64,000 bases of DNA from an uncultured bacterium. Lineage in GTDB: Bacteria; Abyssobacteria; SURF-5. The notes under the pieces are model-generated. The model was not told the origin of the DNA. It worked only from the letters and a program-made list of their open reading frames with translations, and made no database searches. Within the stretch, counting starts at the first letter, position 1. Every line of letters starts with the position of its first letter. Location of the stretch: positions 179,439 to 243,438 of the forward strand of contig CAYVQZ010000002.1 in assembly GCA_964453435.1 (NCBI GenBank), given 5' to 3'. This document shows positions 32,713 to 63,945 of the stretch, in pieces. Made by a program: the position numbers and the translations under genes.

Positions 32713-35583
32713 ATGGCCGAAGAGACGAAACGCTGTCCATACTGCGACGAGGAAATCCGCGCCCGGGCCGTCAAGTGCAAGCATTGCGGCGCGATGCTCG
32801 ATGAATCCGTTCCCGCTCCTTCCGCCCCCGACCCCTTGGACAGTCATCCTACAATCCCTCCCGGCGAGATCAAGAGTATCCTCGGCGGCAGGTATGAACT
32901 GCTGGAGGAACTCGGGCGCGGCGGAATGGGAATCGTGTATAAAGCGCTCGACACGAAGCTCGACACGGTTGTCGCCATCAAACTCCTTCCCGAATACCTC
33001 GCGCGCGACAACCGGGGCATAAACATCCTGAAGCGCGAGGCGCTCGCGGCCATGAAGCTCTCGCATCCGAACATCATGAAGTTCTACCACTTCGAGGACC
33101 ATCCCGAGGGCAAGTTCCTCATTGTGGAGTATATCGAGGGGAAGACGCTGGACCAGATTCTCGATGAAAGCCCGGGGCATGCGCTTCCCGAGGAACAGGT
33201 CATCAAGTATGCCGTAGAGGCATGTAAGGGTTTGGAATACGCTCACTCCGAAGGCGTCATTCACAGAGACATCAAACCCTCCAACATCATGGTGGACGTT
33301 AATGGCCGGGTGAAGATAACCGATTTCGGCATCGCGCGGGTCCTGAAAGACTCCCACACCCGCCACACCGGCACGGTCACCAGCGGCACGCTCTTATACA
33401 TGAGCCCGGAACAGATACAGGGCGAGAAGTGCGATGCGCGGAGCGATATTTACTCATTCGGCATCAGCCTGTATGAGCTCTTGAGCGGAAACGCTCCGTT
33501 TTCCTCTGGGGACATCACTCATCAGCATATCAACAAGATGCCCGCTCCCATTCCCGATATCTCGGACAGGCTGAATGCAATCCTTGTCAGATGTCTCGAG
33601 AAGAAACCCGAGGACCGATTCCGGAGCGCGGGCGAACTGGCCGATGCTCTCGCGGGCAGGATGAGTGCAGAAACGACCGAAGGCTCCAAAGCTGCTCAGA
33701 AACCTCATGAGCCTTTGTCCGTCAAGCCAGGGATGAGTCGCGCCTGGGTTGTGGCAATGTTGTTTTTGATAGTTGCGCTTATCGGTGGGGCGGTCGCATA
33801 TAGATACGTGCAGGCCGGGAAAGCCGACGATGAGGCCTCCGGAGTTCGAGCACAACCGCCCGATTCGAACTTCAGAAAACTTACTCCGGAGGAAGTAAAG
33901 GCAATGGGCCTACCCCTACCTGGGGCAGAACCGGCCAGGCCGGTTATGGAACAAGACCAGTCGGGAGACGATACGTCAAGCCAACAGCCAGAGGAAGCAA
34001 AAAAGAAGGAAGCGGAAGAGAGGGCAGAGGAGCAATCCAAGGCTGGCGAAGAAGAACGCAGGCGGGAAGAGCTTGAGAAGCAGGGGCTGGCGCAGGAGCG
34101 CGAGACGGCGCTGACACAGGCCGTTGTCGAGGTGAAGGTGGCGATGGAGGCATCGCTCGAGGCTGCAAAAAGGGCGGAGGCGCCGAAGCATGCCTCATCC
34201 GAGTTCAATGTTGCCGAGCAGGAGAGAAAGAAGGCGGCTGAATATGACCAACGGGGAAACAGAGAACTGGCAAAGGCATCATACGAAAAAGCCAAGGCTG
34301 GATATGACAAGTCCGTTCAGTCAGCCAAACAGGAGAAGGCGCGAATAGAGGCCGAGAGGGTGGCGAAGCAGAAGGCAGAGGCCGAGTCTGCGAGGTCGGA
34401 GATGGCGGCCGCCAAAAGCAGGGCCGAATCGGAGGAAGCGCTAAAGTTTGCTGGCGCGGAGTACGAACCGGCACTTACTTCAGAGCGGGAAGCATCGAAT
34501 TCATTCATTAGCGGGTCTTATGTTGAGGCGAAGGCGAAATATATTTCGGCCAAGGATGGATACCTGAGGGCACTCAATTTGGCGAAGCAGATCCGTGCTG
34601 AAATGATCCTCGTCCCTGCAGGCGAATTCATGATGGGGAGTCCGTCCGGTAAAGGAGCTTATGACGAGTACCCGCAGCATAGGGTGTATGTGGATGCGTT
34701 TTATATGGATGAGTACGAGGTGACGATGAGTCAGTATATGGCGTTTATACGCGCGACTGGACATCGTGGTCTGCCTGATTGGGTTTCCAAGTATGCCCCG
34801 AGTGACAACTGTCCAGTGGTGGGGGTAAGCTGGGATGACGCGGTTGCGTATGCTCAGTGGGTTGGCAAGCGGTTGCCGACCGAGGCCGAGTGGGAGTATG
34901 CATGCAGGGCAGGGAGCGCGATGAAATACTCATTCGGCAATGACGAGGGCAGGCTGGGCGAGTACGCCTGGTATGACAAAAACTCCGGCGGGAAGACGCA
35001 TCCTGTAGGCCAGAAGAAGCCGAACAACTGGGGTTTGTACGACATGCACGGGAACGTGTGGGAGTGGTGCTCGGACTGGCATGATTCGAAATACTACCAA
35101 AGCAGCCCATCAAAGAATCCGAAAGGTCCAGCGAACGGTCGGTATCGTGTGCTTCGTGGTGGGTCGTGGGGCCACTATGCGAGTTACATTCGTTCGGCGT
35201 ACCGGGACATCGGCACACCCGTGGACACGCGTAGCGGCGTCGGCTTCCGCTGCGCTAAGGATATTAAAAATAAGCAGTATCCTGCTGCAGAATCGTCCTC
35301 AGAAGAGGTTGAAAATGAAGAAGCAATCCCCAAACCCAGCGCTCGCTATGCGTTGCAAGTTAGCTCAAGTCAAGATAAGGCGCTAGCCTACAGTCTTGTT
35401 GAGATCCTAGGGGTTCAAGGTTACGAAAGCTATGTGGAAGAAACTGCTCTCGATTCGGCATCGGGGACATGGTTCAGGGTTATGGTCGGCCCGTTTCAGG
35501 CTCGAGAAGAAGCTGAAGCAGTATTGAGAACACTAAATAAGGATTCGAGGTTTGCAGGTTTGTATTTGAGATATTTGCCCTGA
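32713..35583 (+). CDS. Ser/Thr protein kinase: N-terminal zinc ribbon + kinase + TM + coiled coil + FGE-sulfatase (SUMF1-like) domain + C-terminal SPOR domain
   Basis: Zinc ribbon CPYCDEEIRARAVKCKHCGAML. Kinase motifs GRGGMGIVYKA, HRDIKPSN, DFG. FGE-like domain from [14 protein letters not shown] to RVLRGGSW...GFRCAKD. SPOR-like tail (YALQVSS...WFRVMVGPFQAREEAEAV). Confidence 0.85.
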   Translation: MAEETKRCPYCDEEIRARAVKCKHCGAMLDESVPAPSAPDPLDSHPTIPPGEIKSILGGRYELLEELGRGGMGIVYKALDTKLDTVVAIKLLPEYLARDNRGINILKREALAAMKLSHPNIMKFYHFEDHPEGKFLIVEYIEGKTLDQILDESPGHALPEEQVIKYAVEACKGLEYAHSEGVIHRDIKPSNIMVDVNGRVKITDFGIARVLKDSHTRHTGTVTSGTLLYMSPEQIQGEKCDARSDIYSFGISLYELLSGNAPFSSGDITHQHINKMPAPIPDISDRLNAILVRCLEKKPEDRFRSAGELADALAGRMSAETTEGSKAAQKPHEPLSVKPGMSRAWVVAMLFLIVALIGGAVAYRYVQAGKADDEASGVRAQPPDSNFRKLTPEEVKAMGLPLPGAEPARPVMEQDQSGDDTSSQQPEEAKKKEAEERAEEQSKAGEEERRREELEKQGLAQERETALTQAVVEVKVAMEASLEAAKRAEAPKHASSEFNVAEQERKKAAEYDQRGNRELAKASYEKAKAGYDKSVQSAKQEKARIEAERVAKQKAEAESARSEMAAAKSRAESEEALKFAGAEYEPALTSEREASNSFISGSYVEAKAKYISAKDGYLRALNLAKQIRAEMILVPAGEFMMGSPSGKGAYDEYPQHRVYVDAFYMDEYEVTMSQYMAFIRATGHRGLPDWVSKYAPSDNCPVVGVSWDDAVAYAQWVGKRLPTEAEWEYACRAGSAMKYSFGNDEGRLGEYAWYDKNSGGKTHPVGQKKPNNWGLYDMHGNVWEWCSDWHDSKYYQSSPSKNPKGPANGRYRVLRGGSWGHYASYIRSAYRDIGTPVDTRSGVGFRCAKDIKNKQYPAAESSSEEVENEEAIPKPSARYALQVSSSQDKALAYSLVEILGVQGYESYVEETALDSASGTWFRVMVGPFQAREEAEAVLRTLNKDSRFAGLYLRYLP

Positions 35584-35595
35584 AAAATATAAGCA

Positions 35596-37785
35596 ATGCT
35601 AGAAAATATTAAAAAGTGCCCATACTGCAAGGAAGAAATCCGTGCCGATGCCATCCGATGCAAGCATTGCCACATGATGCTTAATAAGGAATCTTCTGTT
35701 TCCGATGGATCGGATGTCGCCTCCGCCGGTCCTCTTGATGATGCGGTCACACGGCTTCCCGATGACGTCGGCAGGGTTTTGTCCGACCGATTCGAGATAA
35801 GAGAGCTGATCGCCGAAGGAGGTTTCGGGAAGGTATATCGAGCTTACGACGGGGTGATGAAGATCGATGTTGCGATCAAGGAACTCTCCGACCGCTTTGA
35901 GAAAGACCGGAAGGCGGTCAGGTTCCTCCTGTCGGAGGCAAAGGCCGCTCACGCGCTGGCGCATCCTCGCATCGCGAAGTTTGACTACTACGATGAGAAG
36001 GGTAACTATCTCCTCATGGAGTATGTTCCGGGCCTCGTGGTGGGGGATGCTGTGTGCCACGACGTGGCCCAGCTGCTGGAGGCCCGGGGAGGGAAACTGT
36101 CCGAGGAGGAGGCGACACGGATCATTCTGCAACTGCTCGAAGCGCTCCAATACGCGCACGGTCTGCCCGAGCCGGTCATCCACCGCGATATCAAGCCGCA
36201 GAACCTGCTGCTTGACGCGCAGGGAAACGTGAAGGTATGCGACTTCGGCATCGCAAAGGTGGTGCGGGAGAGCGTGAGCCGGTATGGAATACCCGACACC
36301 AGCGGGACATTGATGTACATGAGTCCGGAACAGTGTGTGGGCAGGGGAGTGGACGCCCGCAGCGACATCTACTCTCTTGGCGTTACCTTGTACGAGCTTC
36401 TGAGCGGAAGGACGCCGTTCGAGGATGCCGAGGACGTCACCTATTGTCACATCAATGTGGAACCCGAGCCGATTCGAGGGGTGGGCGACCGACTGAATGA
36501 GATTGTTCTGAAGTGTCTTGCCAAAAAGCCCGAGGACCGCTGGCAGAACGCCCGCGAGTTGGCCGATGCGCTGGAGGGAAAGATCGAGACGGATTCGGAA
36601 CGCAGGGAGAAGGAAGGAGCACGGGCGGCGCTGAGGAAGCAGGAAGAGGAGCGAAAGCGGAGGGAGAAAGAAGAGGCCGAACGCAAAGCAAAAGAAGAGG
36701 CTGCGCGCCGGCGCGAGCTAGAAGAATCCCGCAGGCTCGGAGAAGAAGAGGAAAGAAGGCAAAAGGAGATCGCCCGACGGTTTGTTCTCCCGAGCATCGA
36801 CCATGAGGAAGCTGCTCGACAGGTCGATGAAGAAAAGCAAAGAAAAGAGGCTGACAGAAAAGCAAGGGAAATGGGAGATAAGTGGAAGAAAATCAGGGCC
36901 CCCGCTGTGACGTTTGCGTTGATATATATTATTGTGGGAGTGGTCGGCGGCGGCATTATTTACTACCGAGCGCAGCCGCGGAAGAAGGCGGAACGCGCCC
37001 GCCGCGAGGCGGCGGTGCGGTATGACCAGCAAGCGAAGACTCTCAGTCCTTCACAAGACACAGTTGAAGAGAAAAAACCTTGGATAGAATTTAGGATCGA
37101 TTCCTCATTATTGAGAGACAGATTAAATGAGATAACTGGGAAAGAGAAACTTGTCTTCCCAGTAATTTTCGAGGAAAGCCCGTTTAGATTTAACGTGTCT
37201 GATGCAATAATGAAAACAAGAGAGATCCAATATACATATAAGAGAAAAGGTGAAGTTTTTGGAGCCGGAAAAGGAGAGTTTGATCGAAACACCGACATAA
37301 TTGACTACGTAGTTTTGCTGCGAATATTTACCTCTTCGAAAATTCCTAAGGACCGCACCAAATTTTTCAGTATGGCCGATTACAGAGCACTTGGAGAGCA
37401 TCTATACTTGGCTGTTGTTTCTTCAGGAACAGATTATATCGATCAATTGAACACAGTATCCATATCGGAGCCCAGCGAGTTTAGATGGGAAGGCAAGAGC
37501 AATATTCCATGGCTTTTTTGCTACGATTTCGATGGGAACGGCCTAGACGAAATCTGTTTAAGCTACATTCAGCCGCGCCAAGGCCCTTATTCTTGCTTCG
37601 AAGTGTATAGACTGGATAGTACCATGAGAAAGCTTGAGAGGATTGTTGATAAGCACGTAAACATCGTAGACCCTCCATATGGAGAGTTGCATTTTGACAG
37701 CGGTTCCCTATTCTTTACGGGAACGTTTTGGGATGATCAGAGGAGAACATTTATTTTGGGAAAGCGCGAGAGGATCTTGCCTTAA
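35596..37785 (+). CDS. Ser/Thr protein kinase: zinc ribbon + kinase + ER/K-rich helix + TM + low-GC C-terminal extracytoplasmic domain (FG-GAP-like DFDGNGLDE motif)
   Basis: [22 protein letters not shown]. Kinase [17 protein letters not shown] tract [42 protein letters not shown] helix at ~aa 440. The C-terminal ~250 aa is AT-rich. Confidence 0.85.
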   Translation: MLENIKKCPYCKEEIRADAIRCKHCHMMLNKESSVSDGSDVASAGPLDDAVTRLPDDVGRVLSDRFEIRELIAEGGFGKVYRAYDGVMKIDVAIKELSDRFEKDRKAVRFLLSEAKAAHALAHPRIAKFDYYDEKGNYLLMEYVPGLVVGDAVCHDVAQLLEARGGKLSEEEATRIILQLLEALQYAHGLPEPVIHRDIKPQNLLLDAQGNVKVCDFGIAKVVRESVSRYGIPDTSGTLMYMSPEQCVGRGVDARSDIYSLGVTLYELLSGRTPFEDAEDVTYCHINVEPEPIRGVGDRLNEIVLKCLAKKPEDRWQNARELADALEGKIETDSERREKEGARAALRKQEEERKRREKEEAERKAKEEAARRRELEESRRLGEEEERRQKEIARRFVLPSIDHEEAARQVDEEKQRKEADRKAREMGDKWKKIRAPAVTFALIYIIVGVVGGGIIYYRAQPRKKAERARREAAVRYDQQAKTLSPSQDTVEEKKPWIEFRIDSSLLRDRLNEITGKEKLVFPVIFEESPFRFNVSDAIMKTREIQYTYKRKGEVFGAGKGEFDRNTDIIDYVVLLRIFTSSKIPKDRTKFFSMADYRALGEHLYLAVVSSGTDYIDQLNTVSISEPSEFRWEGKSNIPWLFCYDFDGNGLDEICLSYIQPRQGPYSCFEVYRLDSTMRKLERIVDKHVNIVDPPYGELHFDSGSLFFTGTFWDDQRRTFILGKRERILP

Positions 37786-38440: not shown

Positions 38441-38536
38441 TTTGATTGTATCTTCGTGCATTTGCGGCTTGAAACCCAAGGGTCTTTCCTGTTGCTTAAA
38501 GATTTCATCAGGCTAAACGGCGAATAGAGAAACAGA

Positions 38537-40840
38537 ATGGCTGCAGAGACAAAACGCTGTCCATACTGCAAGGAAGAAATCCTTGCCGATGCCATCCGAT
38601 GCAAGCATTGCCACATGATGCTTGATAAGGAACCTTCTGTTTCCGATGGATCGGACGTCGCCGCCGCCGGTCCCCTTGATGATGCGGCCACCCGGCTTCC
38701 CGATGATGTCGGCAGGGTTTTGTCCGGCCGATTCGAGATAAAAGAACTGATCGCCGAAGGAGGTTTCGGGAAGGTATATCGAGCTTACGACCGGGTGATG
38801 AAGATCGATGTCGCGATCAAGGAACTCTCCGACCGCTTTGAGAAGGACCGGAAGGCGGTCAGGTTCCTCCTCTCTGAGGCAAAGGCCGCGCACGCGCTGG
38901 CGCATCCTCGCATCGCGAAGTTCGATTACTACGACGAGAAGGGGAAATATCTCCTCATGGAATATGTTCCGGGCCTGGTGGTGGGGGAGACTGTGTGCCA
39001 CGACGTGGCCCAGTTGCTGGAGGCCCGGGGAGGGAAACTGTCGGAAGAGGAGGCGACCCGGATCATCCTGCAACTGCTCGAAGCGCTGCAATACGCCCAC
39101 GGTCTGCCCGAGCCGGTCATCCACCGCGACATCAAGCCGCAGAACCTGCTGCTGGACGCGCAGGGGAACGTGAAGGTATGCGACTTTGGCATCGCAAAGG
39201 TGGTGCGGGAGAGCGTGAGCCGGTATGGGATACCCGACACCAGCGGGACATTGATGTACATGAGTCCGGAACAGTGTGTGGGCAGGGGAGTGGACGCCCG
39301 CAGCGACATCTACTCTCTTGGCGTTACCTTGTACGAGCTTCTGAGCGGAAGGACGCCGTTCGAGGATGCCGAGGACGTCACCTATTGTCACATCAATGTG
39401 GAACCCGAGCCGATTCGAGGGGTGAGCGGGCGACTGAATGAAATCATTCTCAAATGCCTTGCCAAAAAGCCCGAAGATCGCTGGCAGAACGCCCGTGAGT
39501 TGGCCGACGCGCTGGAGGGGAGAATCGAGACGGATTCGGAACGCCGGGAGAAAGAACGAGCGCGAGCGGCGCTGAGGAAGCAGGAAGAAGAGCGAAAGCA
39601 ACGGGAGAAAGAAGAAGCCGAGCGCAAAGCAAAAGAAGAGGCTACGCGCCAGCGCGAGCTGGAAGAATCCCGCAGGCTCGGAGAAGAAGAGGAAAGAAGG
39701 CAAAGGGAGGCCGTCCGACGGCTTGACTTCCCAAGCGTTGGCCATGAGGAAGCTGCTCGAGAGTTCGAGGAAGAAAAGCGGAGAAAAGAGGCTGAGAGAA
39801 AAGCACGGGAAGAAGAGGAGGAGCGAGAAAAAAACCGAGCCGTCGTCGTGGTACTGGCGCTGATATTCTTTCTTGCGGTCGCGGTTATCGGTGGTATTTA
39901 CTATCAAGGACGGGTGCGGGAGGAAGGGGAGCGCGCCCTCCGCGAGGCGGCAGGGCGGTCTGAGCAGGAAGCGAAGCAGAAACAGGCGGAGACTGAGAAG
40001 ACGACCCAAAGAGAAGCCGTAAGACCCCAGCCTTCCCCGAAACCGGCGCCGGTTGTTGTTCCACAACCAAAGCCGACCGCTTCTCAAAAGGCGGCGGCGC
40101 AAGCTCCCGAGGGTATGGTTTTGATTCCCGCCGGCGAGTTCATGATGGGGAGCCTGTCGGGCGAGGGACACGATCATGAGCATCCGCAGCACCGTGTGTA
40201 TGTGGACGCGTTTTATATGGACAGGTATGAGGTGACGGTTGGCCAGTACAAGAGGTTTCTGAGCGCGACGGGACATCGAAGCCTTCCGGACTGGGTGTCC
40301 GAGTATTCTCGTACTGCCGACTGTCCTGTGGTGGGAGTGAGCTGGGATGACGCGGTGGCATACGCCCGCTGGGCTGGCAAGCGATTGCCGACGGAGGCCG
40401 AGTGGGAGTATGCGTGCCGGGCCGGGAGCGCGACGAAATACTCATTCGGAAACGACGAGGGCAGGCTCGGTGAGTATGCCTGGTACTATTCCAACTCCGG
40501 CCGAAAGACGCATCCGGTGGGCCAGAAGAAGCAGAACGCCTGGGGCCTGTATGACATGCACGGGAACGTGTGGGAATGGTGCTCGGACTGGTACGACAAG
40601 GATTATTATAGCAACAGCCCTTCACGGAACCCGAAGGGTCCAACGAACGGTCAGTATCGCGTGCTTCGCGGCGGTTCCTGGAACAATAACGCCAACAACG
40701 CGCGGGCGGCGAACCGGAACAACAACACGCCAACGAACACGAACAACAACAACGGGTTTCGGTGCGCCAGGACTGCTCGGAGAAACATCCTTCTCCTTGC
40801 CGGATTTCGGCAGTTCAAGGATTGCCGAAGCGCGCATTGA
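38537..40840 (+). CDS. Ser/Thr protein kinase: zinc ribbon + kinase + ER/K-rich helix + TM + FGE-sulfatase domain with Asn-rich low-complexity insertion
   Basis: About 95% nt identity to 35596..~36800 over zinc ribbon, kinase and ER/K. FGE domain [14 protein letters not shown]...[38 protein letters not shown]. Confidence 0.85.
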
Positions 40841-42085: not shown

Positions 42086-42103
42086 CTGGCATCGTTCCTG
42101 CCT
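42086..42103 (+). promoter_or_regulatory. Candidate sigma54 (-24/-12) promoter TGGCATcgttccTGC upstream of the lipoprotein gene cluster
   Basis: GG and GC elements lie at the canonical 10-nt separation (TGGCAT-N5-CTGC versus consensus TGGCAC-N5-TTGC), about 60 nt upstream of the ATG at 42163. Two sigma54 activators are encoded nearby. Confidence 0.3.
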
Positions 42104-46006: not shown

Positions 46007-46018
46007 GGCAATATCATC

Positions 46019-53513: not shown

Positions 53514-54694
53514 ACCGACCAAATAGGAACACCTGCAAAAGCTGTGGCTCGCTCATCGCCCCGGACAAAAGCCTCTGCAGAAAATGTGAAATGAAAACAG
53601 GAGCGAAGCCTGGCGACATGAGTTCGAGAATCGCAGAGATGGAAGCGGCGACTTCACAGCGCCTGGCGGAAATGGAAAAGAGGCGGCAGGGCTTGGCCGA
53701 AAGCCTCGATACCTCGTTGCAGGAGAGATTGACGGCGAAGAAGAAAACCGAAACCCCCGCCTCCGTCGCTGAATCCCAGGAGACCCGAACGGCGGACGCC
53801 GACCCGCTCGAGGCGCAAAACCCCGGCGCGTTCGCCAAGCTCGAGCGGCTCTGCTCGGAGATCCGCCATTCGATTGTCGAGGCATGTTTTTACAACTTGA
53901 AGCTGCAATCTCAACTGTTGCCGAAAAAGGTCGGGTCAACTGATTTCATGCAGGAATTTCGTCGCAACCTCTCGCAGTTGCCTGCGGTCGCTTCCAGGTT
54001 ACAGGATTTTTTTAATCAAGAAATCGATGCACGCTTGAAGGTTTCTTCCCTTTTCAAGGAGGAATATGGGCGAGTAATGAATGGCCTGCAGCGCCTGAAG
54101 GGGACATCCTCCGAAAACGGCGAGCCAGCAGATGAATCGATCGAGGCCGCAAGGAACATTTCGGAATCGATTGACACGATTGTTGCGGGCCTGCAATCGA
54201 TTGACGACCGGGTCAGGAAGAATAAGGTTGACGTGAAAGACCTCCTTACAGGTGTTGCGGCGGCTTCGAGAGAGCGATGCGAGGAAGCCGGGGTGAAATT
54301 GTCCGTTCATTTACCCGATGGCTCCTTTCCCAGGGTGTATTCGACCGGAAGCCTCCTCTCGGACGTCCTCCACGAACTCATTCGCAATTCGCTCAAGCAT
54401 GCGTTCCCGCTGGCTGCCGCCGTGGAGAAATGCATTGAAATCGTTGCGGACATGAGCGAGGAACCCAACCGCTCGATCATCATTCAGGTCGCGGACAACG
54501 GGCAGGGATTCCCCTTGGAAACATTGGAGCGCGCTCGGACCGAAGAAACTCCGGCAAATGGCAATGGCTACGGGCTTCCCATGGTTATCCACAACATCGA
54601 GAACCTGCATGGAGGGCAGGTAACCTGCGACAGTTCACCGGAGAACGGAACGAAATTTGTCATCAGCATACCGACCAGGCCTCCGAAAGAATAA
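53510..54694 (+). CDS. Zinc-ribbon + coiled-coil + HATPase_c (GHKL) protein without recognisable His phospho-acceptor box
   Basis: N-terminal CKSCGSLIAPDKSLCRKCE. C-terminal N-box LHELIRNSLKHAF, G1 DNGQGFP, G2 GYGLPMV. ATGA overlap with the upstream FHA gene. Confidence 0.6.
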   Translation: MNRPNRNTCKSCGSLIAPDKSLCRKCEMKTGAKPGDMSSRIAEMEAATSQRLAEMEKRRQGLAESLDTSLQERLTAKKKTETPASVAESQETRTADADPLEAQNPGAFAKLERLCSEIRHSIVEACFYNLKLQSQLLPKKVGSTDFMQEFRRNLSQLPAVASRLQDFFNQEIDARLKVSSLFKEEYGRVMNGLQRLKGTSSENGEPADESIEAARNISESIDTIVAGLQSIDDRVRKNKVDVKDLLTGVAAASRERCEEAGVKLSVHLPDGSFPRVYSTGSLLSDVLHELIRNSLKHAFPLAAAVEKCIEIVADMSEEPNRSIIIQVADNGQGFPLETLERARTEETPANGNGYGLPMVIHNIENLHGGQVTCDSSPENGTKFVISIPTRPPKE

Positions 54695-55158: not shown

Positions 55159-58100
55159 ATGCCCGAAGATTTGAAAAATTGCCTTAATTGCAATACGCAA
55201 CTTGGCAAAGATGACTCCGTCTGCCCGAATTGCGGCCTCGAGGTTCATGTGGACCACTTGGACGACCAGCCGACCCGGCTGGCTGGCGGTCCACTCGTAG
55301 GCGGTGAGCCGGGGACCGGAGAATTGCTCGACGACGCCGAAACCGTATTAGGAGCGCAGAGAGAAGGGTTGGGATTTGATTCTTCGCTGACTCGTGAATC
55401 CGCAACCCGTAGCAGGTACCGGATACTCGACACACTCGGCGAGGGCGGTATGGGAGTGGTCTACAAGGCCGAGGACACCAAGCTCCGCCGCACCGTCGCG
55501 ATCAAAAGACTGCTTCCGAAAGCCGAAGCCCAGCAGAAAGGTCTCGACCGATTCCTGCGGGAGGCGCACGTTGTCGCAGGCCTGAACCACATCAACATCG
55601 TGAATGTCTTTGACATAGAGCGGGACGCGAAGGGTCCGTTCATCGTAATGGAGTACGTGGAAGGAAAGAGCCTGGAGAGGGTTATCGAAGAGGAAGGGAA
55701 GATTGAGGAATCACGGGCGATAGAGCTGTTCAAGCAGGTATGTCAGGCAATCGGGTATGCCCACAGAGTGGATATCATCCATCGAGATATAAAACCGGCA
55801 AACATTATCATTACTTCCGACGGCGTTCCCAAGGTGCTGGACTTCGGGCTGGCGCAGATGGCGACCGAGTCGGATCTCTCGAAGACGGGCTACGGCATGG
55901 GCACGATGTACTACATGCCGCCGGAGCAGACGAGGGACGCGAAGAATGTCGACCACCGGGCGGATATCTATGCGCTTGGCGCCACGCTGTATCACATGCT
56001 GACCGGCGAGCGTCCGAAGCTGATAAAGGCCGACAAACTCTCTGCGGGACTGAAGGCTTTGGTCTTCAAATGCATGGAAGAGAATCCGCGGGACAGATAT
56101 TTCAGCATATCCGAAATTCTTGTTGACGTAGAGTCTTCCGTTTCGGCAAAAGACTCGAAGCCACCGAGACTGGAGTCGGAGGACGCCTGCCACAACTGCG
56201 GCTATGTCAACCCCGAAAGCGCGCGTTTCTGCAAGGCATGCGGCACGGGTTTGTTCGAGAAATGCCCGAAATGCGAGGGCGAGAACCGAGTCGGCTCGAA
56301 ATACTGCATGTCGTGCGGGCTCAACATACCGGACTTCAGGAAAGCCCGTGAGCATACCCAGCGCGCGCAGGAGTATCTCAAAAATTACAAATATTCCCGC
56401 GCCATCAAGGAACTTAAAGCAGCCCTCCAACTTGAGGTCGGGAAGATAGAAATGGAAGCTTTGCTCGCGACAGCGGAAGAGAGCCTGGCAAAGCTCAATG
56501 CACACAAAGAGAGAGCCCAAACGCTCAAGCGCGAAGAGAAATATAAGGAAGCAGAGCAAGAAATCTTGAAGGCGCTCGAACTCGACCCATCCGATGATTC
56601 CGCCGAAGAACTGAGGAGGGAAATCGGCGCTCTCATTCAGGAAGAACATCTGGCTAAAGCCGAGGCTCTGAGACGTGAATACAAATTTGAGGAGGCGGCA
56701 GCCGAATATCAACTGGTCCTGGAGCGGAACTCGGCCCATGAGAGAGCAATAAAGGCGCATAAAGAGGTCCGGGAAATCCTCGATAGTATTCTGAACCACA
56801 AAAAGAGAGCGGACGCGTTGCTCGAGCAGAAGAGATATCAGCAAGCGATAGATGAATATGAACAGATACTGAGCCTTGCGCCGACTGATGCATATGCCAA
56901 GGGTTCTGTAAAGAAGTGCCAGAAGCTACTTGAGGAAATTGAGTCGCTCAACAGGAAAGCGAACGAGGCGCTTGCCGACAAAGCATTTCCAGACGCCATA
57001 CAATTTCTGCAAAGGCTTCTCAATCTTTCTGACGATGTCGAGTCAGTTACGCATAAGCTCGAATTAGCGCGAAGCGCGCAAAAGCAAATAGTTGCCCATC
57101 TCAAGGAGGGCCGCAGACTTGCAGATAACGGCCGATACGATGAGGCGATAGAAGAGTACCGGAAAGTCCTCTCTGTTGACAGAGAACACTCGAAAGCCTC
57201 CGAGGAACTGGCTCGAATCGGGCAAACTGTTAGAGAAATAGAGAAGCTGGAAGAAGACCTGACGGCAAGCCTGGACAGGGGAGACTTTGCCGAAGCGGTT
57301 CGCCTCATACAGGCCCTGCAAGAGCACAAGCGTGATACGAAGTGGGCGGAGAACCTGTTGCAGGAGGCAAAGTCAAAGGAGGCAAGGATACGGGCGCACT
57401 ACAACGCCGCGACCAATTGGTATGGTGTCAGGAAGTATTGCAAATCAATCAGAGAAGCCGAGCGCATACTCGAAATAGCGCCATCCCATGCGGGGGCGTT
57501 GGAGATAATCGAGAAATCGAGAAGAAAAATCTCATTAATGTTGAAAGGCTTCGCGGCACTCGTGATACTCGGTCTCTCAATCGCGTTGGTCGCATACATC
57601 TCTTATCAAATTCGCAATTATTCAAAATATGTGGAGCAGGCCGAGGAAGCATTCAAGCAGGAAAAATGGGTGGAGGCGAGCAGCTACTGCATGGAGGCGC
57701 TGGAGCTCAATTCCGACGGCAAGAGAGCACTACAACTCTTGGCTGAACTGGCGCCGGCGTTGGAGACAATTGCCCAAGATGCCCGAGAGGAAGCCTTGAG
57801 CGCAAGAAAAACCGCTGAAGATGCGATGGCGCCTCTCTATGCCAAAACGACTTACGAGAGCGCCTCCAGGAGCCATGCCGAGGCGGATTCCCATTTTGGA
57901 GCAAACGGTTTTGGCCCGGCTGCACAAGCGTACAGGGGCGCCGCCGAGCAGTATCAGAACGCAACGAGCGAGGCAAAAACCGCAATGGCCAAAGCGAAGG
58001 AAGAGGCTGACAGGGAAAAATCAGCGCTCGGGGAGACGAAAAACAAGATTGATGCGCAGAAAGCAGGAAGCTATGCCCGTGAATCATTCGAGGCGGGCAA

Positions 58101-58761
58101 GCAGGCTGAGCGGTCAGCAAGTATTGAATATGACAAACAACGCTATGCGGCGGCGGCTCAAAAATATCGCCAAGCACATGCCTATTATAAAAATGTCTTA
58201 GAGCATGTCAGCAGAGCAATGGCCGAGGAAGAACTGCGCAAGCAAGCTGCTAAGGCGAGGGTGGCGATGGAGGGGTTGCTTGATGCGGCAAAGGAGGCAG
58301 AGGCACCGAAGTATGCCTCATCAGAGTTCACTTCTGCCGAGCAAGAGAGAAAGAAGGCGGAGGAATATGACCGGCGAGGAAACAGTCAACTGGCAAAGAC
58401 ATACTACGAGAAAGCCCAATCCTTATATGAGAATTCCGTTCGAACGGCTAGGCAGGAAAAGGCCCGGCTCGAGGCCACTGCGAAGAAAGCTGAGAGAATG
58501 GAAGGGCTGGTAAATTTCCTCGTTTGGCTTGTTCTGATACTTTTTTGCTTTTTTATAGCGCGTGCATTGTCCCGTTTGAGCTTTAGAGGTGGTTGTGGGT
58601 TTCTGATTTTCATATTCTTAGTAGTGCTGCCTATTTTACAGATTGTAATGGACGAATATTTTGATTCTGTAACTAAGGTGAAAATGATGGCGCCCATAAC
58701 GATTTTATTTACGATAGTTGCAACGATATTCCTTATTTTAAAAGCTCCGCGCCACCTATAA
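55159..58761 (+). CDS. Ser/Thr protein kinase: zinc ribbon + kinase + triple zinc-ribbon module + TPR repeats + TM + TPR/coiled coil + C-terminal multi-TM segment
   Basis: 1200 aa. CLNCNTQLGKDDSVCPNCG. Kinase motifs. CHNCGYV..CKACG..CPKCEGE..CMSCG. TPR-like helices. TM helices at ~aa 795 and at the C-terminus. Confidence 0.85.
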   Translation: MPEDLKNCLNCNTQLGKDDSVCPNCGLEVHVDHLDDQPTRLAGGPLVGGEPGTGELLDDAETVLGAQREGLGFDSSLTRESATRSRYRILDTLGEGGMGVVYKAEDTKLRRTVAIKRLLPKAEAQQKGLDRFLREAHVVAGLNHINIVNVFDIERDAKGPFIVMEYVEGKSLERVIEEEGKIEESRAIELFKQVCQAIGYAHRVDIIHRDIKPANIIITSDGVPKVLDFGLAQMATESDLSKTGYGMGTMYYMPPEQTRDAKNVDHRADIYALGATLYHMLTGERPKLIKADKLSAGLKALVFKCMEENPRDRYFSISEILVDVESSVSAKDSKPPRLESEDACHNCGYVNPESARFCKACGTGLFEKCPKCEGENRVGSKYCMSCGLNIPDFRKAREHTQRAQEYLKNYKYSRAIKELKAALQLEVGKIEMEALLATAEESLAKLNAHKERAQTLKREEKYKEAEQEILKALELDPSDDSAEELRREIGALIQEEHLAKAEALRREYKFEEAAAEYQLVLERNSAHERAIKAHKEVREILDSILNHKKRADALLEQKRYQQAIDEYEQILSLAPTDAYAKGSVKKCQKLLEEIESLNRKANEALADKAFPDAIQFLQRLLNLSDDVESVTHKLELARSAQKQIVAHLKEGRRLADNGRYDEAIEEYRKVLSVDREHSKASEELARIGQTVREIEKLEEDLTASLDRGDFAEAVRLIQALQEHKRDTKWAENLLQEAKSKEARIRAHYNAATNWYGVRKYCKSIREAERILEIAPSHAGALEIIEKSRRKISLMLKGFAALVILGLSIALVAYISYQIRNYSKYVEQAEEAFKQEKWVEASSYCMEALELNSDGKRALQLLAELAPALETIAQDAREEALSARKTAEDAMAPLYAKTTYESASRSHAEADSHFGANGFGPAAQAYRGAAEQYQNATSEAKTAMAKAKEEADREKSALGETKNKIDAQKAGSYARESFEAGKQAERSASIEYDKQRYAAAAQKYRQAHAYYKNVLEHVSRAMAEEELRKQAAKARVAMEGLLDAAKEAEAPKYASSEFTSAEQERKKAEEYDRRGNSQLAKTYYEKAQSLYENSVRTARQEKARLEATAKKAERMEGLVNFLVWLVLILFCFFIARALSRLSFRGGCGFLIFIFLVVLPILQIVMDEYFDSVTKVKMMAPITILFTIVATIFLILKAPRHL

Positions 58762-59182: not shown

Positions 59183-61645
59183 ATGGCTGAAGACCTGAAG
59201 ATATGTCGGAATTGCGGCGCGCCGCTGAGCGAGAACCAGTTGATGTGCCCGGCCTGCGGAACGCGATGGGGCACGGATGCACTCGATGCTGAACCGACGC
59301 AACTGGCCGGCCACGCAAAAATCCAGGGCGAGTCGCTCGATGACGCCGAGACCATACTGAAAGAGCAGGGCATCGGGCCGGGACTTGATTCCACGGTAAC
59401 CAGCGAATCCGCAACCCGTAGCAGGTACCGGATACTCGACACACTCGGCGAGGGCGGTATGGGAGTGGTCTACAAGGCCGAGGACACCAAGCTCCGCCGC
59501 ACCGTCGCGATCAAAAGACTGCTTCCGAAAGCCGAAGCCCAGCAGAAAGGTCTCGACCGATTCCTGCGGGAGGCGCACGTTGTCGCAGGCCTGAACCACA
59601 TCAACATCGTGAATGTCTTTGACATAGAGCGGGACGCGAAGGGTCCGTTCATCGTAATGGAGTACGTGGAAGGAAAGAGCCTGGAGAGGGTTATCGAAGA
59701 GGAAGGGAAGATTGAGGAATCACGGGCGATAGAGCTGTTCAAGCAGGTATGTCAGGCAATCGGGTATGCCCACAGAGTGGATATCATCCATCGAGATATA
59801 AAACCGGCAAACATTATCATTACTTCCGACGGCGTTCCCAAGGTGCTGGACTTCGGGCTGGCGCAGATGGCGACCGAGTCGGATCTCTCGAAGACGGGCT
59901 ACGGCATGGGCACGATGTACTACATGCCGCCGGAGCAGACGAGGGACGCGAAGAATGTCGACCACCGGGCGGATATCTATGCGCTTGGCGCCACGCTGTA
60001 TCACATGCTGACCGGCGAGCGTCCGAAGCTGATAAAGGCCGACAAACTCTCTGCGGGACTGAAGGCTTTGGTCTTCAAATGCATGGAAGAGAATCCGCGG
60101 GACAGATATTTCAGCATATCCGAAATTCTTGTTGACGTAGAGTCTTCCGTTTCGGCAAAAGACTCGAAGCCACCGAGACTGGAGTCGGAGGACGCCTGCC
60201 ACAACTGCGGCTATGTCAACCCCGAAAGCGCGCGTTTCTGCAAGGCATGCGGCACGGGTTTGTTCGAGAAATGCCCGAAATGCGAGGGCGAGAACCGGGT
60301 AGGCTCGAAATACTGCATGTCGTGCGGGCTGAACATTCCTGACTTTAAGAAATCTCAGGAGCATCTGCAGCGCGCCCAGGAATACCTGAAGGAATACAAG
60401 TACTCGCGCGCGATAAAGGAACTGAAGGCCGCGCTGGAGCTCGAGGTCGAGAAGGCGGAGCTTCAAAGCCTTCTCTCGGAAGCCCAGGAAAAACTTTCGC
60501 GGCTTAACGAGCACCGAGAGAAGGCCGAAGTCCAGAAGCAGGATGGAAGCTACGAAGAAGCCGAACAAGCGGTTCTCGCAGCGATTGACTTGGACCCACA
60601 TGATGAAACGCTTCATTTGTTAAAGGGTGACATCCAGAATTTGATTCAGGAGATGCATCTGCGCGAAGCGCGCGCCAAGGCGGAACAAGAAGATTATGAA
60701 GGGGCGCTTTGTGGATGCGATAAGGTGTTCAAGTACAATCCGAACAATCGTGAGGCGAGCGAATTGCGTGACGAAGTTCTCGCCAACACAAAGAGGAAGG
60801 TCGAATTCATCTGTGCGAAGATAAAAGAGAGTCGCGCTCGCATTAACATCGAAGTCGCCGAAGGGCTGCGTCATTCGAGGTATATGCAGGGGGAGAAAGA
60901 ATGCCGACTTGCCGAAGAGGCGTTAAACTGTGGAGAGATAGGAAAGGCGCTTCGTTATTACAATCAATCGCTGGAGCAATATAGCGCTGCGGCGCGGGAA
61001 CTGGCTATTTATGATGCTTTGCCGCTCAAGTTTGAGAACTCTGTCGGCATGGAATTTGTTCTGATACCGGCGGGCGAGTTCATGATGGGCAGCCCTGAGG
61101 GCGAGGGAGACTATGATGAGCGCCCGCAACACAAAGTGATAATAACCAGACCCTTCTATATGCAGACCACTCCCGTTACACAAGCGCAGTGGAAGAAGGT
61201 GATTGGCAGGAAATTCTTGAGGAGAACCAAAAACCCATCGTACTTCAAGGGGGATGACCTGCCTGTGGAGAGAGTCAGTTGGAAAGATGCGCAGAGATTT
61301 CTGGAAAAGCTGAATCAGAAGGAACAAAAGGGAAGGTATCGCCTGCCGACGGAGGCCGAGTGGGAGTACGCATGCCGCGCCGGAAGCGCGACGAAATACT
61401 CATTCGGCAATGACGAGGGCAGGCTTGGCGAGTACGCCTGGTATGATAAAAACTCCGGCGGAAAAACGCACCCGGTGGGCCAGAAGAAGCCGAACGCCTG
61501 GGGCCTGTATGACATGCACGGCAACGTGTGGGAGTGGTGCTCGGACTGGTACGACAAGGACTACTATCGTAACAGCCCTTCACGGAACCCGAAGGGTCCA
61601 ACGAACGGTCGGTATCGCGTGCTTCGCGGCGGCTCGTGGTCTTAG
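59183..61645 (+). CDS. Ser/Thr protein kinase: zinc ribbon + kinase + zinc-ribbon module + TPR + FGE-sulfatase domain interrupted by in-frame TAG
   Basis: Nucleotides 59405-60297 are 100% identical to 55396-56288. FGE domain [18 protein letters not shown]...RVLRGGSWS then TAG at 61643-61645. Confidence 0.8.
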   Translation: MAEDLKICRNCGAPLSENQLMCPACGTRWGTDALDAEPTQLAGHAKIQGESLDDAETILKEQGIGPGLDSTVTSESATRSRYRILDTLGEGGMGVVYKAEDTKLRRTVAIKRLLPKAEAQQKGLDRFLREAHVVAGLNHINIVNVFDIERDAKGPFIVMEYVEGKSLERVIEEEGKIEESRAIELFKQVCQAIGYAHRVDIIHRDIKPANIIITSDGVPKVLDFGLAQMATESDLSKTGYGMGTMYYMPPEQTRDAKNVDHRADIYALGATLYHMLTGERPKLIKADKLSAGLKALVFKCMEENPRDRYFSISEILVDVESSVSAKDSKPPRLESEDACHNCGYVNPESARFCKACGTGLFEKCPKCEGENRVGSKYCMSCGLNIPDFKKSQEHLQRAQEYLKEYKYSRAIKELKAALELEVEKAELQSLLSEAQEKLSRLNEHREKAEVQKQDGSYEEAEQAVLAAIDLDPHDETLHLLKGDIQNLIQEMHLREARAKAEQEDYEGALCGCDKVFKYNPNNREASELRDEVLANTKRKVEFICAKIKESRARINIEVAEGLRHSRYMQGEKECRLAEEALNCGEIGKALRYYNQSLEQYSAAARELAIYDALPLKFENSVGMEFVLIPAGEFMMGSPEGEGDYDERPQHKVIITRPFYMQTTPVTQAQWKKVIGRKFLRRTKNPSYFKGDDLPVERVSWKDAQRFLEKLNQKEQKGRYRLPTEAEWEYACRAGSATKYSFGNDEGRLGEYAWYDKNSGGKTHPVGQKKPNAWGLYDMHGNVWEWCSDWYDKDYYRNSPSRNPKGPTNGRYRVLRGGSWS

Positions 61646-61735
61646 GCCGGGGGCGTGCGGGCGGCGCTCCGGTACGGCGACACGCCGACGGGCGCGAGCA
61701 GCAACGTCGGTTTTCGTTGCGCCCAGGATAAATAA
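61646..61735 (+). other. In-frame post-stop continuation encoding the conserved end of the FGE-sulfatase domain (AGGVRAALRYGDTPTGASSNVGFRCAQDK*)
   Basis: Same frame as the kinase ORF, immediately after the TAG. It matches the paralog C-termini (..[14 protein letters not shown] / ..RSAYRDIGTP..VGFRCAKD). Confidence 0.7.
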
Positions 61736-61799: not shown

Positions 61800-62140
61800 A
61801 TTTTTTGGAAATTGGAATCGTGGAAGAGATTCTTCGGTCGCCGCGCTCCCTCAGAATGACAGGGAGGGTTTTGGTCGAATGAATTCGGATTCATGGTGTG
61901 TAGGTGCGAATTCATTCGCACACGGTGTTGGTCGAATAAATTCGACCCTACGTGAGAACGCGGATATTGGTGCGATTGGCCGAATAAATTCGGCCCTATC
62001 CCGCGAAACGCGGGACTTCGCTATCGCTCAGCGAAATCTGAGAAAATCTGCGGATGAACAACAGATGGTCGAATGAATTCGACCCTACAGGGGGATTGTG
62101 GATTATGCAGGCGCGAATTCATTCGCACAATTGTCTGTCA
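61800..62140. repeat. MITE arm + dense REP cluster + 90-bp hairpin element
   Basis: gaagagattcttcggtcgccgcgctccctcagaatgacagggagg; ggtcgaatgaattcggat; gtaggtgcgaattcattcgcac; ggtcgaataaattcgaccctacg; ggccgaataaattcggccctatcccgcgaaacgcgggacttcgctatcgctcagcgaaatctgagaaaatctgcggatgaacaacagatggtcgaatgaattcgaccctacaggg; gcaggcgcgaattcattcgcac. Confidence 0.85.
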
Positions 62141-62238
62141 TCTGCGTGAATCAGCGGTTAATAAGACAACAAAGGCAAATAACAATATCGGAATCAACCA
62201 CAACCTATGGATATCGGCAATAAAGCAGAGAAAAAATC

Positions 62239-63729
62239 ATGGCTAACATACTGATCGTTGACGACGCCATCGACAACCTAAAACTGGTTCTCGAGCACTC
62301 CCTCGAAGAGCATCAACTCTGTTACGCGAAGAGCGGCTCCGAGGCGCTTTCAGCCTTGCAGGAATCGCCCGACACGGACCTCGTTCTCCTCGATGTCAAG
62401 ATGCCTCCCGAGTTCGCCGACGCGGAAGAAGGTGAGGGAATCGAGGTGCTCAAGCGGATAAAGCAGCTCAATCCATCTCTTCCGGTCATTATGCTTACGG
62501 TGTACCACGACATCGATACTGCGGTCGAGGCAACCAAGGAAGGCGCGTTCCATTATCTTACGAAGCCGCCGGACCTCGACAAGCTTCGCGATGCGATTGA
62601 GCGCGCATTGGAAAATCGAAATCTCAGGGAAGAGGTGGGCCATCTTCGCCGGACCGTCGACGCGCTCACTCGCCTTCGCGGTTCGAAAGGCGCGAAGCGG
62701 GAGAGGTTGTCGTTCGGAGACCTGATTGGTCGGAGCCGGAAGATGCAGTCTCTGTTCGACGAGATCGAACAGGTGGCGGGCATGGATGTGTCTGTGCTCC
62801 TTCTCGGTGAGACCGGAACAGGCAAGGATGTCGTCGCCCGCGAAATCCATCGGCGCAGCCCGAGGAACAAGGGTCCGTTTCTTGCCGTGAACTGTTCCGC
62901 GCTTCCCGAGAATCTCCTCGAAAGCCAGATGTTCGGGCACCGGAAAGGCGCATTCACGGGAGCTGTCCGGGACCAGGTCGGCGATTTCGAGCTGGCGAAT
63001 GCGGGAACCATTTTCCTCGATGAAATAGGCGACATGCCGCTTTCTCTCCAGGCGAAGCTGTTGCGCGTGCTGCAGGACGGGCTGGTGAGGCCGCTCGGGG
63101 CAACCAAACCGGTGAAAGTCGATGTGCGGGTAATAAGCGCGACGAACAAGAACCTGAACGACCTCGTCTCCCGCGGGCTGTTTCGCGAGGACCTTTTCTA
63201 CCGCCTCAACGTGGTCCCCATCAGCATATCCCCGCTTCGGGAGAGACCCGAGGATATCCCCCTGCTCGCCGAACACTTCCTCAAGAAGTTCTCATCGGAA
63301 CTCGGCAAGCGGGTTTCCGGATTCACGAGCGACGCTTTGTCAAAGCTGGAGTCTCACAACTGGCCCGGAAACGTGCGCGAACTGGAAAACATTATCAAGC
63401 GCTCGATTGTTCTGGCCCGCTCCGACACGATTGACGGTTCGGACGTCATACTGGGCGAATCGCCTGCAGTTCCCGTCCGTGATGACATCTGGAAAAGCAT
63501 CCTATCGGGCGAGAATCCCATAGATGACCTCACCAGGTTCCGGAATCTTCATGGAGAGAACGCTTTAAAAGACGTGCTCACCAGGGCAATCCAGGAAAAG
63601 AACGATATCCGCGCCGCTGGCAAGCTGATCGGCTATCTCGGCCATTCCGACGACAAGACACGGTACGATAACCTGCGCAAATGGATCAGCCGCCTCGGCA
63701 TCTCGACGCGGGATATCAGGAGGAGTTAG
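62239..63729 (+). CDS. Sigma-54-dependent Fis-family transcriptional regulator (receiver + AAA+ + HTH)
   Basis: Receiver ILIVDDA...LVLLDVKMP, Walker A GETGTGKD, GAFTGA motif, C-terminal HTH. Confidence 0.85.
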   Translation: MANILIVDDAIDNLKLVLEHSLEEHQLCYAKSGSEALSALQESPDTDLVLLDVKMPPEFADAEEGEGIEVLKRIKQLNPSLPVIMLTVYHDIDTAVEATKEGAFHYLTKPPDLDKLRDAIERALENRNLREEVGHLRRTVDALTRLRGSKGAKRERLSFGDLIGRSRKMQSLFDEIEQVAGMDVSVLLLGETGTGKDVVAREIHRRSPRNKGPFLAVNCSALPENLLESQMFGHRKGAFTGAVRDQVGDFELANAGTIFLDEIGDMPLSLQAKLLRVLQDGLVRPLGATKPVKVDVRVISATNKNLNDLVSRGLFREDLFYRLNVVPISISPLRERPEDIPLLAEHFLKKFSSELGKRVSGFTSDALSKLESHNWPGNVRELENIIKRSIVLARSDTIDGSDVILGESPAVPVRDDIWKSILSGENPIDDLTRFRNLHGENALKDVLTRAIQEKNDIRAAGKLIGYLGHSDDKTRYDNLRKWISRLGISTRDIRRS

Positions 63730-63761
63730 GTCCGCGGTCTGTGATTTTACGAATTTACTTC

Positions 63762-63945
63762 TGTCATTCTGAGGGAGCCGAAGCTCAGGATAAACTTCGT
63801 GAAAGGTCTCGGGTTGCGGAGAAGTTATTGATGTTTGTCATTCTGAGCCAAGCGAAGAATCTCTTTTTTAAAGAAGGGATCGCGCAGAAGATATTCTTCG
63901 GTCGCTGCGCTCCCTCAGAATGACAGGGAAGGCGACTCTCGGGCA
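63762..63945. repeat. Full MITE-like element copy with terminal inverted repeats
   Basis: ctgtcattctgagggagccgaagctcaggataaacttcgtgaaaggtctcgggttgcggagaagttattgatgtttgtcattctgagccaagcgaagaatctc...gatattcttcggtcgctgcgctccctcagaatgacaggg. Confidence 0.85.

Follow-up and report, generated by a model that had tools for sequence, protein, structure and literature searches.

NfeD-stomatin operons pair a membrane protease with an SPFH protein. In Bacillus subtilis, ydjFGHL links PspA to a band-7 protein with a C-terminal zinc ribbon and to a double-ribbon membrane protein (PMC11237479), and archaeal ESCRT loci carry Ser/Thr kinases, FHA proteins and SPFH-coiled-coil-ribbon proteins (Makarova et al. 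2024, PMC10936438). Remote or trans-acting targets of diversity-generating retroelements (DGRs), including proteins that join a kinase to a C-type lectin (CLec) fold, have also been documented (PMC10907252, PMC7517822). Here we analyse a 64-kb window of DNA from an uncultured SURF-5 bacterium (contig CAYVQZ010000002.1), in which an island of ~31 kb (32713-63729, all genes on the + strand) encodes six Ser/Thr kinases (K1-K6), an SPFH protein, a transglutaminase-like (TGL) protein, FHA and HATPase proteins, three envelope proteins (L1-L3) and a sigma54 regulator (Table 1). Ten of these proteins begin with a zinc ribbon. We tentatively read the island as one copy, enlarged by paralogs, of a membrane-proximal signalling system that is conserved across phyla, an envelope-surveillance phospho-relay built on an SPFH scaffold; this is the account to which we lean, while granting that it may well prove wrong. 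It is based on the conserved adjacency of the genes, fusions between their products, the specificity of the ribbon, the intact kinase motifs and the published parallels. The original prediction, made from the DNA letters, had recognised no described system of this composition, and our literature searches found none, nor any description of the combination of a ribbon-headed SPFH protein, TGL protease, kinase, FHA protein and histidine kinase-sigma54 output. The parts look like variants of Ser/Thr kinase-FHA signalling and of SPFH-protease pairs.

The archaeal ESCRT loci resemble the present system in that kinase, FHA, phosphatase and ribbon-bearing SPFH genes are clustered, and in the classic-clade AAA+ and short coiled-coil genes found in the clusters of its distant bacterial relatives. 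In contrast, the present system is bacterial, includes a TGL protease and FGE-like domains and carries a ribbon on nearly every component; its window contains no AAA+ or coiled-coil genes, and comparison revealed no significant similarity of the relatives' coiled-coil proteins to ESCRT-III. With ydjFGHL it shares a ribbon-bearing SPFH protein encoded beside a second ribbon-headed protein, in a membrane-stress context. NfeD-stomatin pairs differ more, since the protease here is predicted to be a cytoplasmic transglutaminase-like thiol enzyme rather than an NfeD with an OB fold or a serine protease of the ClpP type, and neither it nor its SPFH partner has a transmembrane (TM) segment. PknB-type kinases and the 'Proteo1' family with a C-terminal FGE-sulfatase domain have the same succession of Hanks-type kinase, TM segment and extracytoplasmic sensor, with FHA genes nearby, and one related locus (L017 in our numbering) even has FhaA_N-FHA and PP2C genes; the sensor here is, however, FGE or SPOR and not PASTA, and N-terminal ribbons are not mentioned in the 'Proteo1' atlas (bioRxiv 10.1101/2025.01.12.632604). 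The DGR-diversified CLec/FGE-kinases of cyanobacteria and multicellular bacteria (PMC7517822, PMC10907252, PMC7159879) likewise end in an FGE/CLec fold, and the tail here follows template logic in its AAC codons and differs between copies specifically at adenines, but neither a reverse transcriptase nor a separate repeat for the template is seen in the 64 kb, the template-like copy lies inside an intact kinase gene (K3) and the variable copy of K6 has a stop. None of these described systems unites a ribbon-headed SPFH protein with a TGL protease, a kinase, an FHA protein and a histidine kinase-sigma54 output.

The conserved core comprises L1-L3, ribbon-TGL, ribbon-SPFH-ribbon, ribbon-kinase, ribbon-double-FHA, ribbon-HATPase and the sigma54 response regulator. 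Genes for ribbon-SPFH, ribbon-TGL and ribbon-kinase proteins lie side by side, with the ribbon-kinase after the ribbon-SPFH gene, both in a 67%-identical relative (L006) and in an unassigned metagenome contig of 26% identity (L003), whose cluster also has ribbon-FHA, FGE, ribbon-WD40 and FHA-PP2C genes. Distant relatives were compared by a phmmer neighbourhood analysis of the 80 best loci. Ribbon-SPFH and ribbon-TGL genes lie next to each other, mostly with one or two ribbon-kinases, in nine metagenome-assembled genomes (MAGs), seven from Acidobacteriota and one each from Syntrophorhabdaceae and Eisenbacteria. Pieces of the core are often accompanied by FGE, PP2C and paired AAA+/coiled-coil genes. 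The SPFH, TGL and kinase genes occur together in L007, L008, L010, L011, L015 and L016 (Acidobacteriota), L017 (Syntrophorhabdaceae) and L027 (Eisenbacteria), and some of these loci also have L1/L2/L3-like, FHA or PP2C genes. L017 adds an L3-like gene, FhaA_N-FHA, PP2C, FGE, Peptidase_MA and a triple-ribbon-TPR protein, and L027 adds L1-, L2- and L3-like genes, a ribbon-FHA gene, an AAA+ gene and a coiled-coil protein. In another relative (L091), the FHA, HATPase and sigma54 regulator genes are contiguous. Elsewhere, a single protein (P0102) fuses an SPFH module to an FHA module. Since the core gene set recurs in distant bacterial phyla, it looks like one system and not a coincidence. Thus, the proposal of a coordinated set rather than a chance neighbourhood is upheld by the adjacency of core pieces in close relatives and distant phyla. 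The core recurs clustered and not scattered; the flanking K1-K3 and K5-K6 are not conserved with it.

The envelope proteins belong to this core. L1 is its first gene, with a homolog adjoining a kinase gene in the Eisenbacteria locus, where a homolog of L2 is also present; L3 is conserved in L006, L017 and L027. All three had been called lipoproteins, but a clear lipobox is found in L2 (LSGC) and the other two have only signal-peptide-like N-termini. Residues ~115-185 of L2 contain four tandem G-x-W-(V/I)-x-P-x3-G-L repeats (HNGEWVDPAAAGL, QNGRWVDPKEEGL, YRGRWVRPTDEGL, ADGQWITPAE) without a family match.

The ribbon is a specific mark of the system. All ten proteins listed in the original prediction carry it within their first 35 residues, each with two CxxC knuckles ~10 residues apart, as a zinc ribbon demands; the spacing is exactly CxxC-x10-CxxC and not the 8-17 residues first given. 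When all six frames of the 64-kb window were scanned for CxxC-x(8-14)-CxxC, 18 sites came up, 16 of them in island genes, the remaining two being a cytochrome c heme-site pair (3347) and a spurious antisense ORF (open reading frame; 16622). N-terminal ribbons are encoded by 10/15 island genes and by 0/~28 genes elsewhere in the window (Fisher p = 2e-6). In 80 loci from reference genomes, fetched with the TGL domain as query, they head 25/35 system proteins (71%) as opposed to 10/632 other long ORFs (1.6%; p = 2e-29), so the ribbon head is a conserved signature of the system. Kinases (9/14), SPFH proteins (6/7) and short TGL proteins (10/14) all share in it, and none of the 66 long helicases that bear the same TGL domain does. 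The ribbons form two sequence classes and not one. The near-identical kinase ribbon that had been described (CPYCxEEI...KCKHC) is found in K1-K4 (class A), whereas K5 and K6 carry another, DZR-like class (class B). Near-identity results from the kinases being paralogs, and since K2/K3 and K5/K6 are recent duplicates, the ten ribbons amount to about six independent cases. The class found on the kinase also varies by lineage: the window, L003 and L006 have the CPYC type there, Acidobacteriota the DZR type.

Pfam Pkinase was confirmed in six proteins (E 1e-47 to 1e-61), and the VAIK (catalytic Lys), HRD, DFG and (S/P)PE motifs are kept in 6/6. K1-K6 are Hanks-type Ser/Thr kinases by these motifs, from which activity is predicted. 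As judged by their identities, they are two ribbon-kinase lineages expanded by recent duplication: K2 and K3 are 86% identical over residues 1-480, K5 and K6 77% over residues 1-550, and K1-K4 have ribbon and kinase in common by descent (DNA repeat D10). The other modules named in the original prediction were recovered as well, with FGE-sulfatase in K1, K3 and K6, SPOR in K1, TPR in K5 and K6, Band_7/SPFH in the 47414 protein and HATPase_c in the 53510 protein; two labels needed other support, transglutaminase-like (46019, no Pfam match) from motif and fold, and FHA (51945, below the cutoff) from homology. The FGE fold of K1, K3 and K6 matches PF03781 at E 4e-52 to 4.5e-68. A catalytic FGE function is ruled out, since the catalytic Cys pair after the GGS motif, whose position we take to be that of the human SUMF1 motif, is absent from the FGE tails: the K1 tail RGGSWGHYASYIRSAYRD has no Cys, and the K3 tail likewise. 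These domains are therefore read as binding modules, a role likewise proposed for 'FGS' domains (PMC7159879).

The kinase genes have also exchanged segments. FGE-coding DNA of K3 (40386-40681) is 91% identical to that of K6 (61344-61639; also 34874-35169 in K1), although the K3 and K6 kinase domains are only ~31% identical in protein, and a juxtamembrane segment is common to K1 (34130-34353) and K5 (58253-58476) at 78% DNA identity (repeat D11). Recombination at the level of domains, or gene conversion, between the paralogs is thereby indicated. Moreover, two families of palindromes resembling repetitive extragenic palindromes (REPs), with cores TGGTCGAATGAATTCGACCCTACAGGGG and GAGATTCTTCGGTCGC..CGCTCCCTCAGAATGACAGGGAG, occur in every long intergenic gap of the island, and a gene for a REP-associated tyrosine transposase (RAYT; NCBIfam REP_Tyr_transpos, 158 bits vs cutoff 80) is flanked by inverted REPs at 41205 and 41722 (pair I11), the RAYT/REPIN arrangement. 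From these gaps and the shared FGE and juxtamembrane segments, the island appears to be a recombination-active paralog nursery around a conserved core. Neither the REP/RAYT elements nor the DGR-type signature described below had been noted in the original prediction.

Such a nursery could also be a patchwork, in which tandemly amplified ribbon-kinases lie beside unrelated operons, the ribbon is a generic promiscuous domain and the apparent unity comes from paralogy and common DZR-type ribbons. The division into paralog groups (K1-K4 and K5/K6), the DNA-level repeats and 91%-identical FGE segments as traces of ongoing recombination, the REP/RAYT-filled gaps, the lack of K5/K6 in the L091 arrangement and the score of most ribbon matches, which lies under the Pfam gathering threshold, would fit this explanation. 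It leaves out, however, that genes for ribbon-SPFH, ribbon-TGL and ribbon-kinase proteins stay neighbours across phyla, that an SPFH-FHA fusion protein exists, and that the N-terminal ribbon has a background of 1.6% against 71% on system proteins. We disfavour the patchwork and regard it as very improbable.

The FGE tails of the kinases carry a further signature. A stretch of K3 resembles a template repeat, and the corresponding stretches of K1 and K6 resemble variable repeats. Against the K3 stretch, K6 has 26 mismatches, 21/26 of them at K3 adenines (p = 8e-8), and K1 has 36, of which 21/36 fall at K3 adenines (p = 1e-3); the 77 nt upstream of the stretch, taken as control, show no adenine bias (p 0.66). 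Homology of the three copies stops just past GGnTTyCGnTGCGC, and the end of the FGE fold is missing from K6 because a TAG lies inside its variable stretch. As in DGR targets, an FGE/CLec fold ends in a repeat pair whose differences are concentrated at one copy's adenines. As for a reverse transcriptase, the 64-kb window holds no YxDD-bearing ORF of at least 150 aa, and no further copy of the repeat, including a separate non-coding template, was found in it. FGE tails are ordinary in related loci; the DGR-type signature is therefore a local elaboration and not a conserved feature of the system. It suggests a ligand specificity that can be programmed in some of the receptor kinases.

Hypervariable FGE/CLec kinases might be antigen sensors for phages or other invaders and release the TGL protease, leading to growth arrest or death, as in the immune or conflict systems proposed for multicellular bacteria; in other lineages caspase, subtilase and AAA+ effectors would be released too. 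The adenine-specific signature in the FGE tails is in line with this, as fusions of kinases or STAND NTPases to CLec/FGE sensors diversified by DGRs have been described as putative conflict systems (PMC10907252, PMC7159879, PMC7517822). Further members of related loci are a caspase-FGE protein beside an AAA+-TGL fusion (L036, Chitinilyticum aquatile), a subtilase (L010) and Peptidase_MA (L017), and 8 kb upstream of the island there is a type I restriction-modification system that includes a TIR gene. Yet PADLOC models match generic kinase domains only, no reverse transcriptase is found in the window, and the ordinary FGE tails of related loci indicate that hypervariation is not conserved in the system. 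The core is syntenic across phyla, unlike typical defence islands, which are patchy, and the SPOR, LpoB/CsgG-like and FlgT_N-like parts together with the sigma54 output suit housekeeping envelope control better. An immune role appears unlikely to us, although it comes next after envelope surveillance, ahead of membrane remodelling and, last, of the patchwork.

Of the soluble parts, the TGL protein (46019) has no Pfam match at E<=0.01, Transglut_core included, and its profile found nothing significant among PDB sequences. Across 44 homologs, G-T-C328-L-D is invariant and G-H354-A nearly invariant (catalytic Cys and His), and the AlphaFold2 (AF2) model (pLDDT 88), with a ribbon, two helices, a beta-sandwich and an alpha/beta core, matches the fold of solved members from the superfamily of transglutaminase-like thiol peptidases. 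Motif and modelled fold together support the prediction of a transglutaminase-like thiol protease. The TGL domain occurs elsewhere free, on DUF4011/SF1 helicases and with FHA. The C-terminal 310 residues of the protein match the N-terminus of the NCBIfam 'anti-phage protein ProA' (NF058533) at E 2e-83; the match falls short of ProA itself, reaching 281 bits vs a 1500-bit cutoff and covering only profile positions 4-313 of 1903, without the DUF4011/SF1 helicase part. No primary description of ProA was found in the literature.

The SPFH protein (47414; Band_7, 33.3 bits vs cutoff 23.6) has no N-terminal TM helix or hydrophobic hairpin anchor. Its family comprises 98 cluster representatives at E<1e-30, and among the 46 best SPFH relatives the ribbon is N-terminal in 43/46, C-terminal in 35/46 and at both ends in 34/46. 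The FHA assignment of the 51945 protein is weak in Pfam (18.3 bits vs cutoff 20.7; AF2 model pLDDT 31) and is supported by apparent homology to bona fide FHA proteins, namely the ribbon-FHA protein of L027 (hhalign probability 86%, E 5e-6) and the canonical FHA domain of the SPFH-FHA fusion P0102 (BLASTP E 4e-11). The phosphothreonine-binding residues (GR ... SxxH) are incomplete in both of its FHA-like domains, FHA1 reading FGR ... ISNEAG, without His, and FHA2 IGS ... VQKVHA, without Arg and Ser. Translational coupling with the HATPase gene, as first proposed, is seen in an ATGA overlap at 53510-53513. The HATPase_c domain of the 53510 protein scores 57.1 bits vs 26.4 and also matches the C-terminal halves of many histidine kinases; no HisKA family match was found, but its helical region has an EIRHSI motif, identical in the partner from a 54%-identity relative, and a cognate response regulator is encoded nearby, as expected of a histidine kinase. 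This regulator (62239) has a receiver, a Sigma54_activat AAA+ domain and a lid, and hence all parts of a bacterial enhancer-binding protein.

AAA+ and coiled-coil genes precede the ribbon-SPFH/ribbon-TGL genes in L007 (1083-7804), L008 (1088-7732), L003 (7948-9840 and 15098-16856) and L027 (10894-12776). They encode arrays of coiled-coil proteins of ~200 aa and, in addition, two AAA+ ATPases of the classic clade with a single domain each. One AAA matches Vps4_C (2.5e-4), the AAA being placed in the Cdc48/Vps4 classic clade, and one coiled-coil protein weakly matches Snf7 (0.16). These genes may be bacterial counterparts of ESCRT-III/Vps4. When the coiled-coil proteins were compared as profiles with yeast Snf7 and E. 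coli PspA, the probabilities were 1-3% and thus not significant.

In E. coli, the Psp response depends on sigma54. By analogy, the island could be the regulatory and scaffold half of an ESCRT/Psp-like machine for membrane remodelling or repair, with a PspF-like sigma54 regulator and with its AAA+ and coiled-coil parts elsewhere in the genome. Coiled-coil/AAA pairs indeed adjoin ribbon-SPFH and ribbon-TGL genes in L003, L007, L008, L010, L015, L016 and L027, the Vps4_C, Snf7 and Cdc48/Vps4-clade matches go in the same direction, and SPFH-ribbon proteins have ties with PspA (B. subtilis, PMC11237479) and with ESCRT (archaea, PMC10936438). But no Vps4-like AAA+ or ESCRT-III/PspA-fold gene, and no other AAA or coiled-coil homolog of these proteins, is found in the window, and the Snf7/PspA comparison argues against it; we judge this explanation improbable. 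A wider proposal would join several of these elements into a widespread ribbon-tagged bacterial machine, in which short ribbons replace TM anchors and, as a shared tag, hold an SPFH cage, receptor Ser/Thr kinases, a TGL protease and FHA readers in one assembly, to which most lineages would add paired Vps4-like AAA+ proteins and ESCRT-III-like filaments. It would correspond to the ESCRT loci that kinase and FHA proteins regulate in archaea, in the present case with DGR-diversified sensors and a sigma54 output, and we find it rather doubtful.

Under the envelope-surveillance reading, the bitopic kinases would read the periplasm or cell wall through their non-catalytic FGE/C-type-lectin domains, SPOR and other ectodomains; the architecture is observed, and sensing is what it would allow. 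The kinases would then phosphorylate threonines of themselves and of their partners. The N-terminal ribbons sit where other SPFH proteins have their membrane anchor, and they may be a shared tag by which the soluble parts are recruited to the kinases embedded in the membrane, to L3 or to the lipid surface. Several observations weigh against this reading. A docking, assembly or anchoring role of the ribbon is suggested by its position and co-occurrence, and the two ribbon classes with their lineage-dependent use on kinases disfavour a specific lock-and-key code. AAA+/coiled-coil homologs, present in most distant relatives, are lacking in the 64-kb window, and the island has no PP2C phosphatase although related loci do. 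No sigma54 -24/-12 site with <=1 mismatch was found in the island, and co-transcription is not assured, since REP-filled gaps of 420-860 bp separate several of the genes.

Of the small domains in bacterial proteomes that still lack an explanation, DZR-type zinc ribbons at the N-terminus are some of the commonest, and the system offers a defined set of partners for probing their role. If the ribbon is an assembly or anchoring tag, it would explain the membrane targeting of the anchor-less SPFH family (~100-400 sequence clusters), reveal a new operon-wide 'same head, different body' logic comparable to that of conflict-system effector-associated domains, and link Ser/Thr kinase signalling to sigma54 transcription via the FHA-histidine-kinase pair. 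The distant relatives with AAA+/coiled-coil pairs also bear on the existence of kinase-regulated ESCRT-like machinery in bacteria.

Table 1. Features of the island. Genes were mapped from translations, hydropathy and Pfam and NCBIfam scans; residue numbers are in parentheses.
Feature	Position	Strand	Description	Basis
K1	32713..35583	+	Ribbon (class A)-Ser/Thr kinase-TM (344-362)-charged helical region-FGE/C-type-lectin-like-SPOR	Pfam Pkinase 1.5e-55, FGE-sulfatase 7e-65, SPOR 1e-11, Zn_ribbon_3 2e-6; TM by hydropathy
K1 stretch	35167..35251	+	Variable-repeat-like, FGE tail	
K2	35596..37785	+	Ribbon (class A)-kinase-TM (437-455)-~270-aa periplasmic domain without family match	
K3	38537..40840	+	Ribbon (class A)-kinase-TM-FGE-like domain; tail an Asn run (AAC codons), similar to a DGR template	Pfam FGE 4.5e-68
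K3 stretch	40679..40763	+	Template-repeat-like, 14 AAC/AAT codons	
RAYT	41278-41736		REP-associated tyrosine transposase	
Candidate sigma54 promoter	42087..42102	+	Weak candidate, TGGCAT-N5-CTGCC	61 nt upstream of L1 start
L1	42163..43152	+	Secreted protein without family match; alternative start 42139	Signal-like N-terminus
L2	43278..44885	+	Lipoprotein (LSGC lipobox), FlgT_N-like domain	Pfam FlgT_N 2e-7
L3	44918..46006	+	Signal peptide-LpoB/CsgG-like periplasmic domain-TM (185-203)-C-terminal coiled coil, predicted cytoplasmic	Pfam CsgG 1.4e-7, LpoB 2.4e-6; hydropathy
TGL	46019..47326	+	Ribbon-predicted transglutaminase-like protease	
SPFH	47414..49045	+	Ribbon-SPFH-ribbon, putative scaffold	Pfam Band_7 6.5e-8, DZR 3e-14, Zn_Ribbon_1 x3
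K4	49906..51924	+	Ribbon (class A)-kinase-TM-helical ectodomain	Pfam Pkinase 3e-61
FHA	51945..53513	+	Ribbon-double-FHA protein	Pfam FHA 0.003, below cutoff
HATPase	53510..54694	+	Ribbon-HATPase protein	Pfam HATPase_c
K5	55159..58761	+	Ribbon (class B)-kinase-double ribbon (344-387)-TPR-TM-helical region-3 TM	
K6	59183..61645	+	Ribbon (class B)-kinase-double ribbon-TPR-FGE-like domain truncated by stop in variable stretch; no TM	
K6 stretch	61637..61718	+	Variable-repeat-like, holds premature TAG	
Regulator	62239..63729	+	Receiver-Sigma54_activat	
REP-like palindrome clusters	38186-38447, 41050-41237, 41715-41893, 49199-49830, 54733-55107, 59007-59147, 61823-62145, 63761-63930			

Within the island, K2 starts 12 bp past the end of K1, and the 42163 start of L1 is preceded by a good ribosome-binding site. 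The candidate promoter at 42087 has 3 consensus mismatches, a quality that occurs at chance frequency, and a scan for sigma70 promoters and terminators likewise stayed at chance level.

The island had also been described as bracketed by sigma54 activators. The right-hand one belongs to it; the left one (9719-11092) was rejected as a flank, as it lies 21 kb away behind unrelated genes, namely a type I restriction-modification system, an HDOD-GGDEF gene, an ABC transporter and an MFS gene. The restriction-modification system is encoded on the - strand (16096-24535), with hsdR at 16096-19245, hsdS at 21259-22758 and hsdM at 22556-24535. Two genes are inserted between hsdR and hsdS, encoding a TIR-domain protein (20159-21262) and a four-helix protein of the 23S-rRNA-IVS family (19242-19922), and the hsdM ORF has a C-terminal GIY-YIG nuclease domain.

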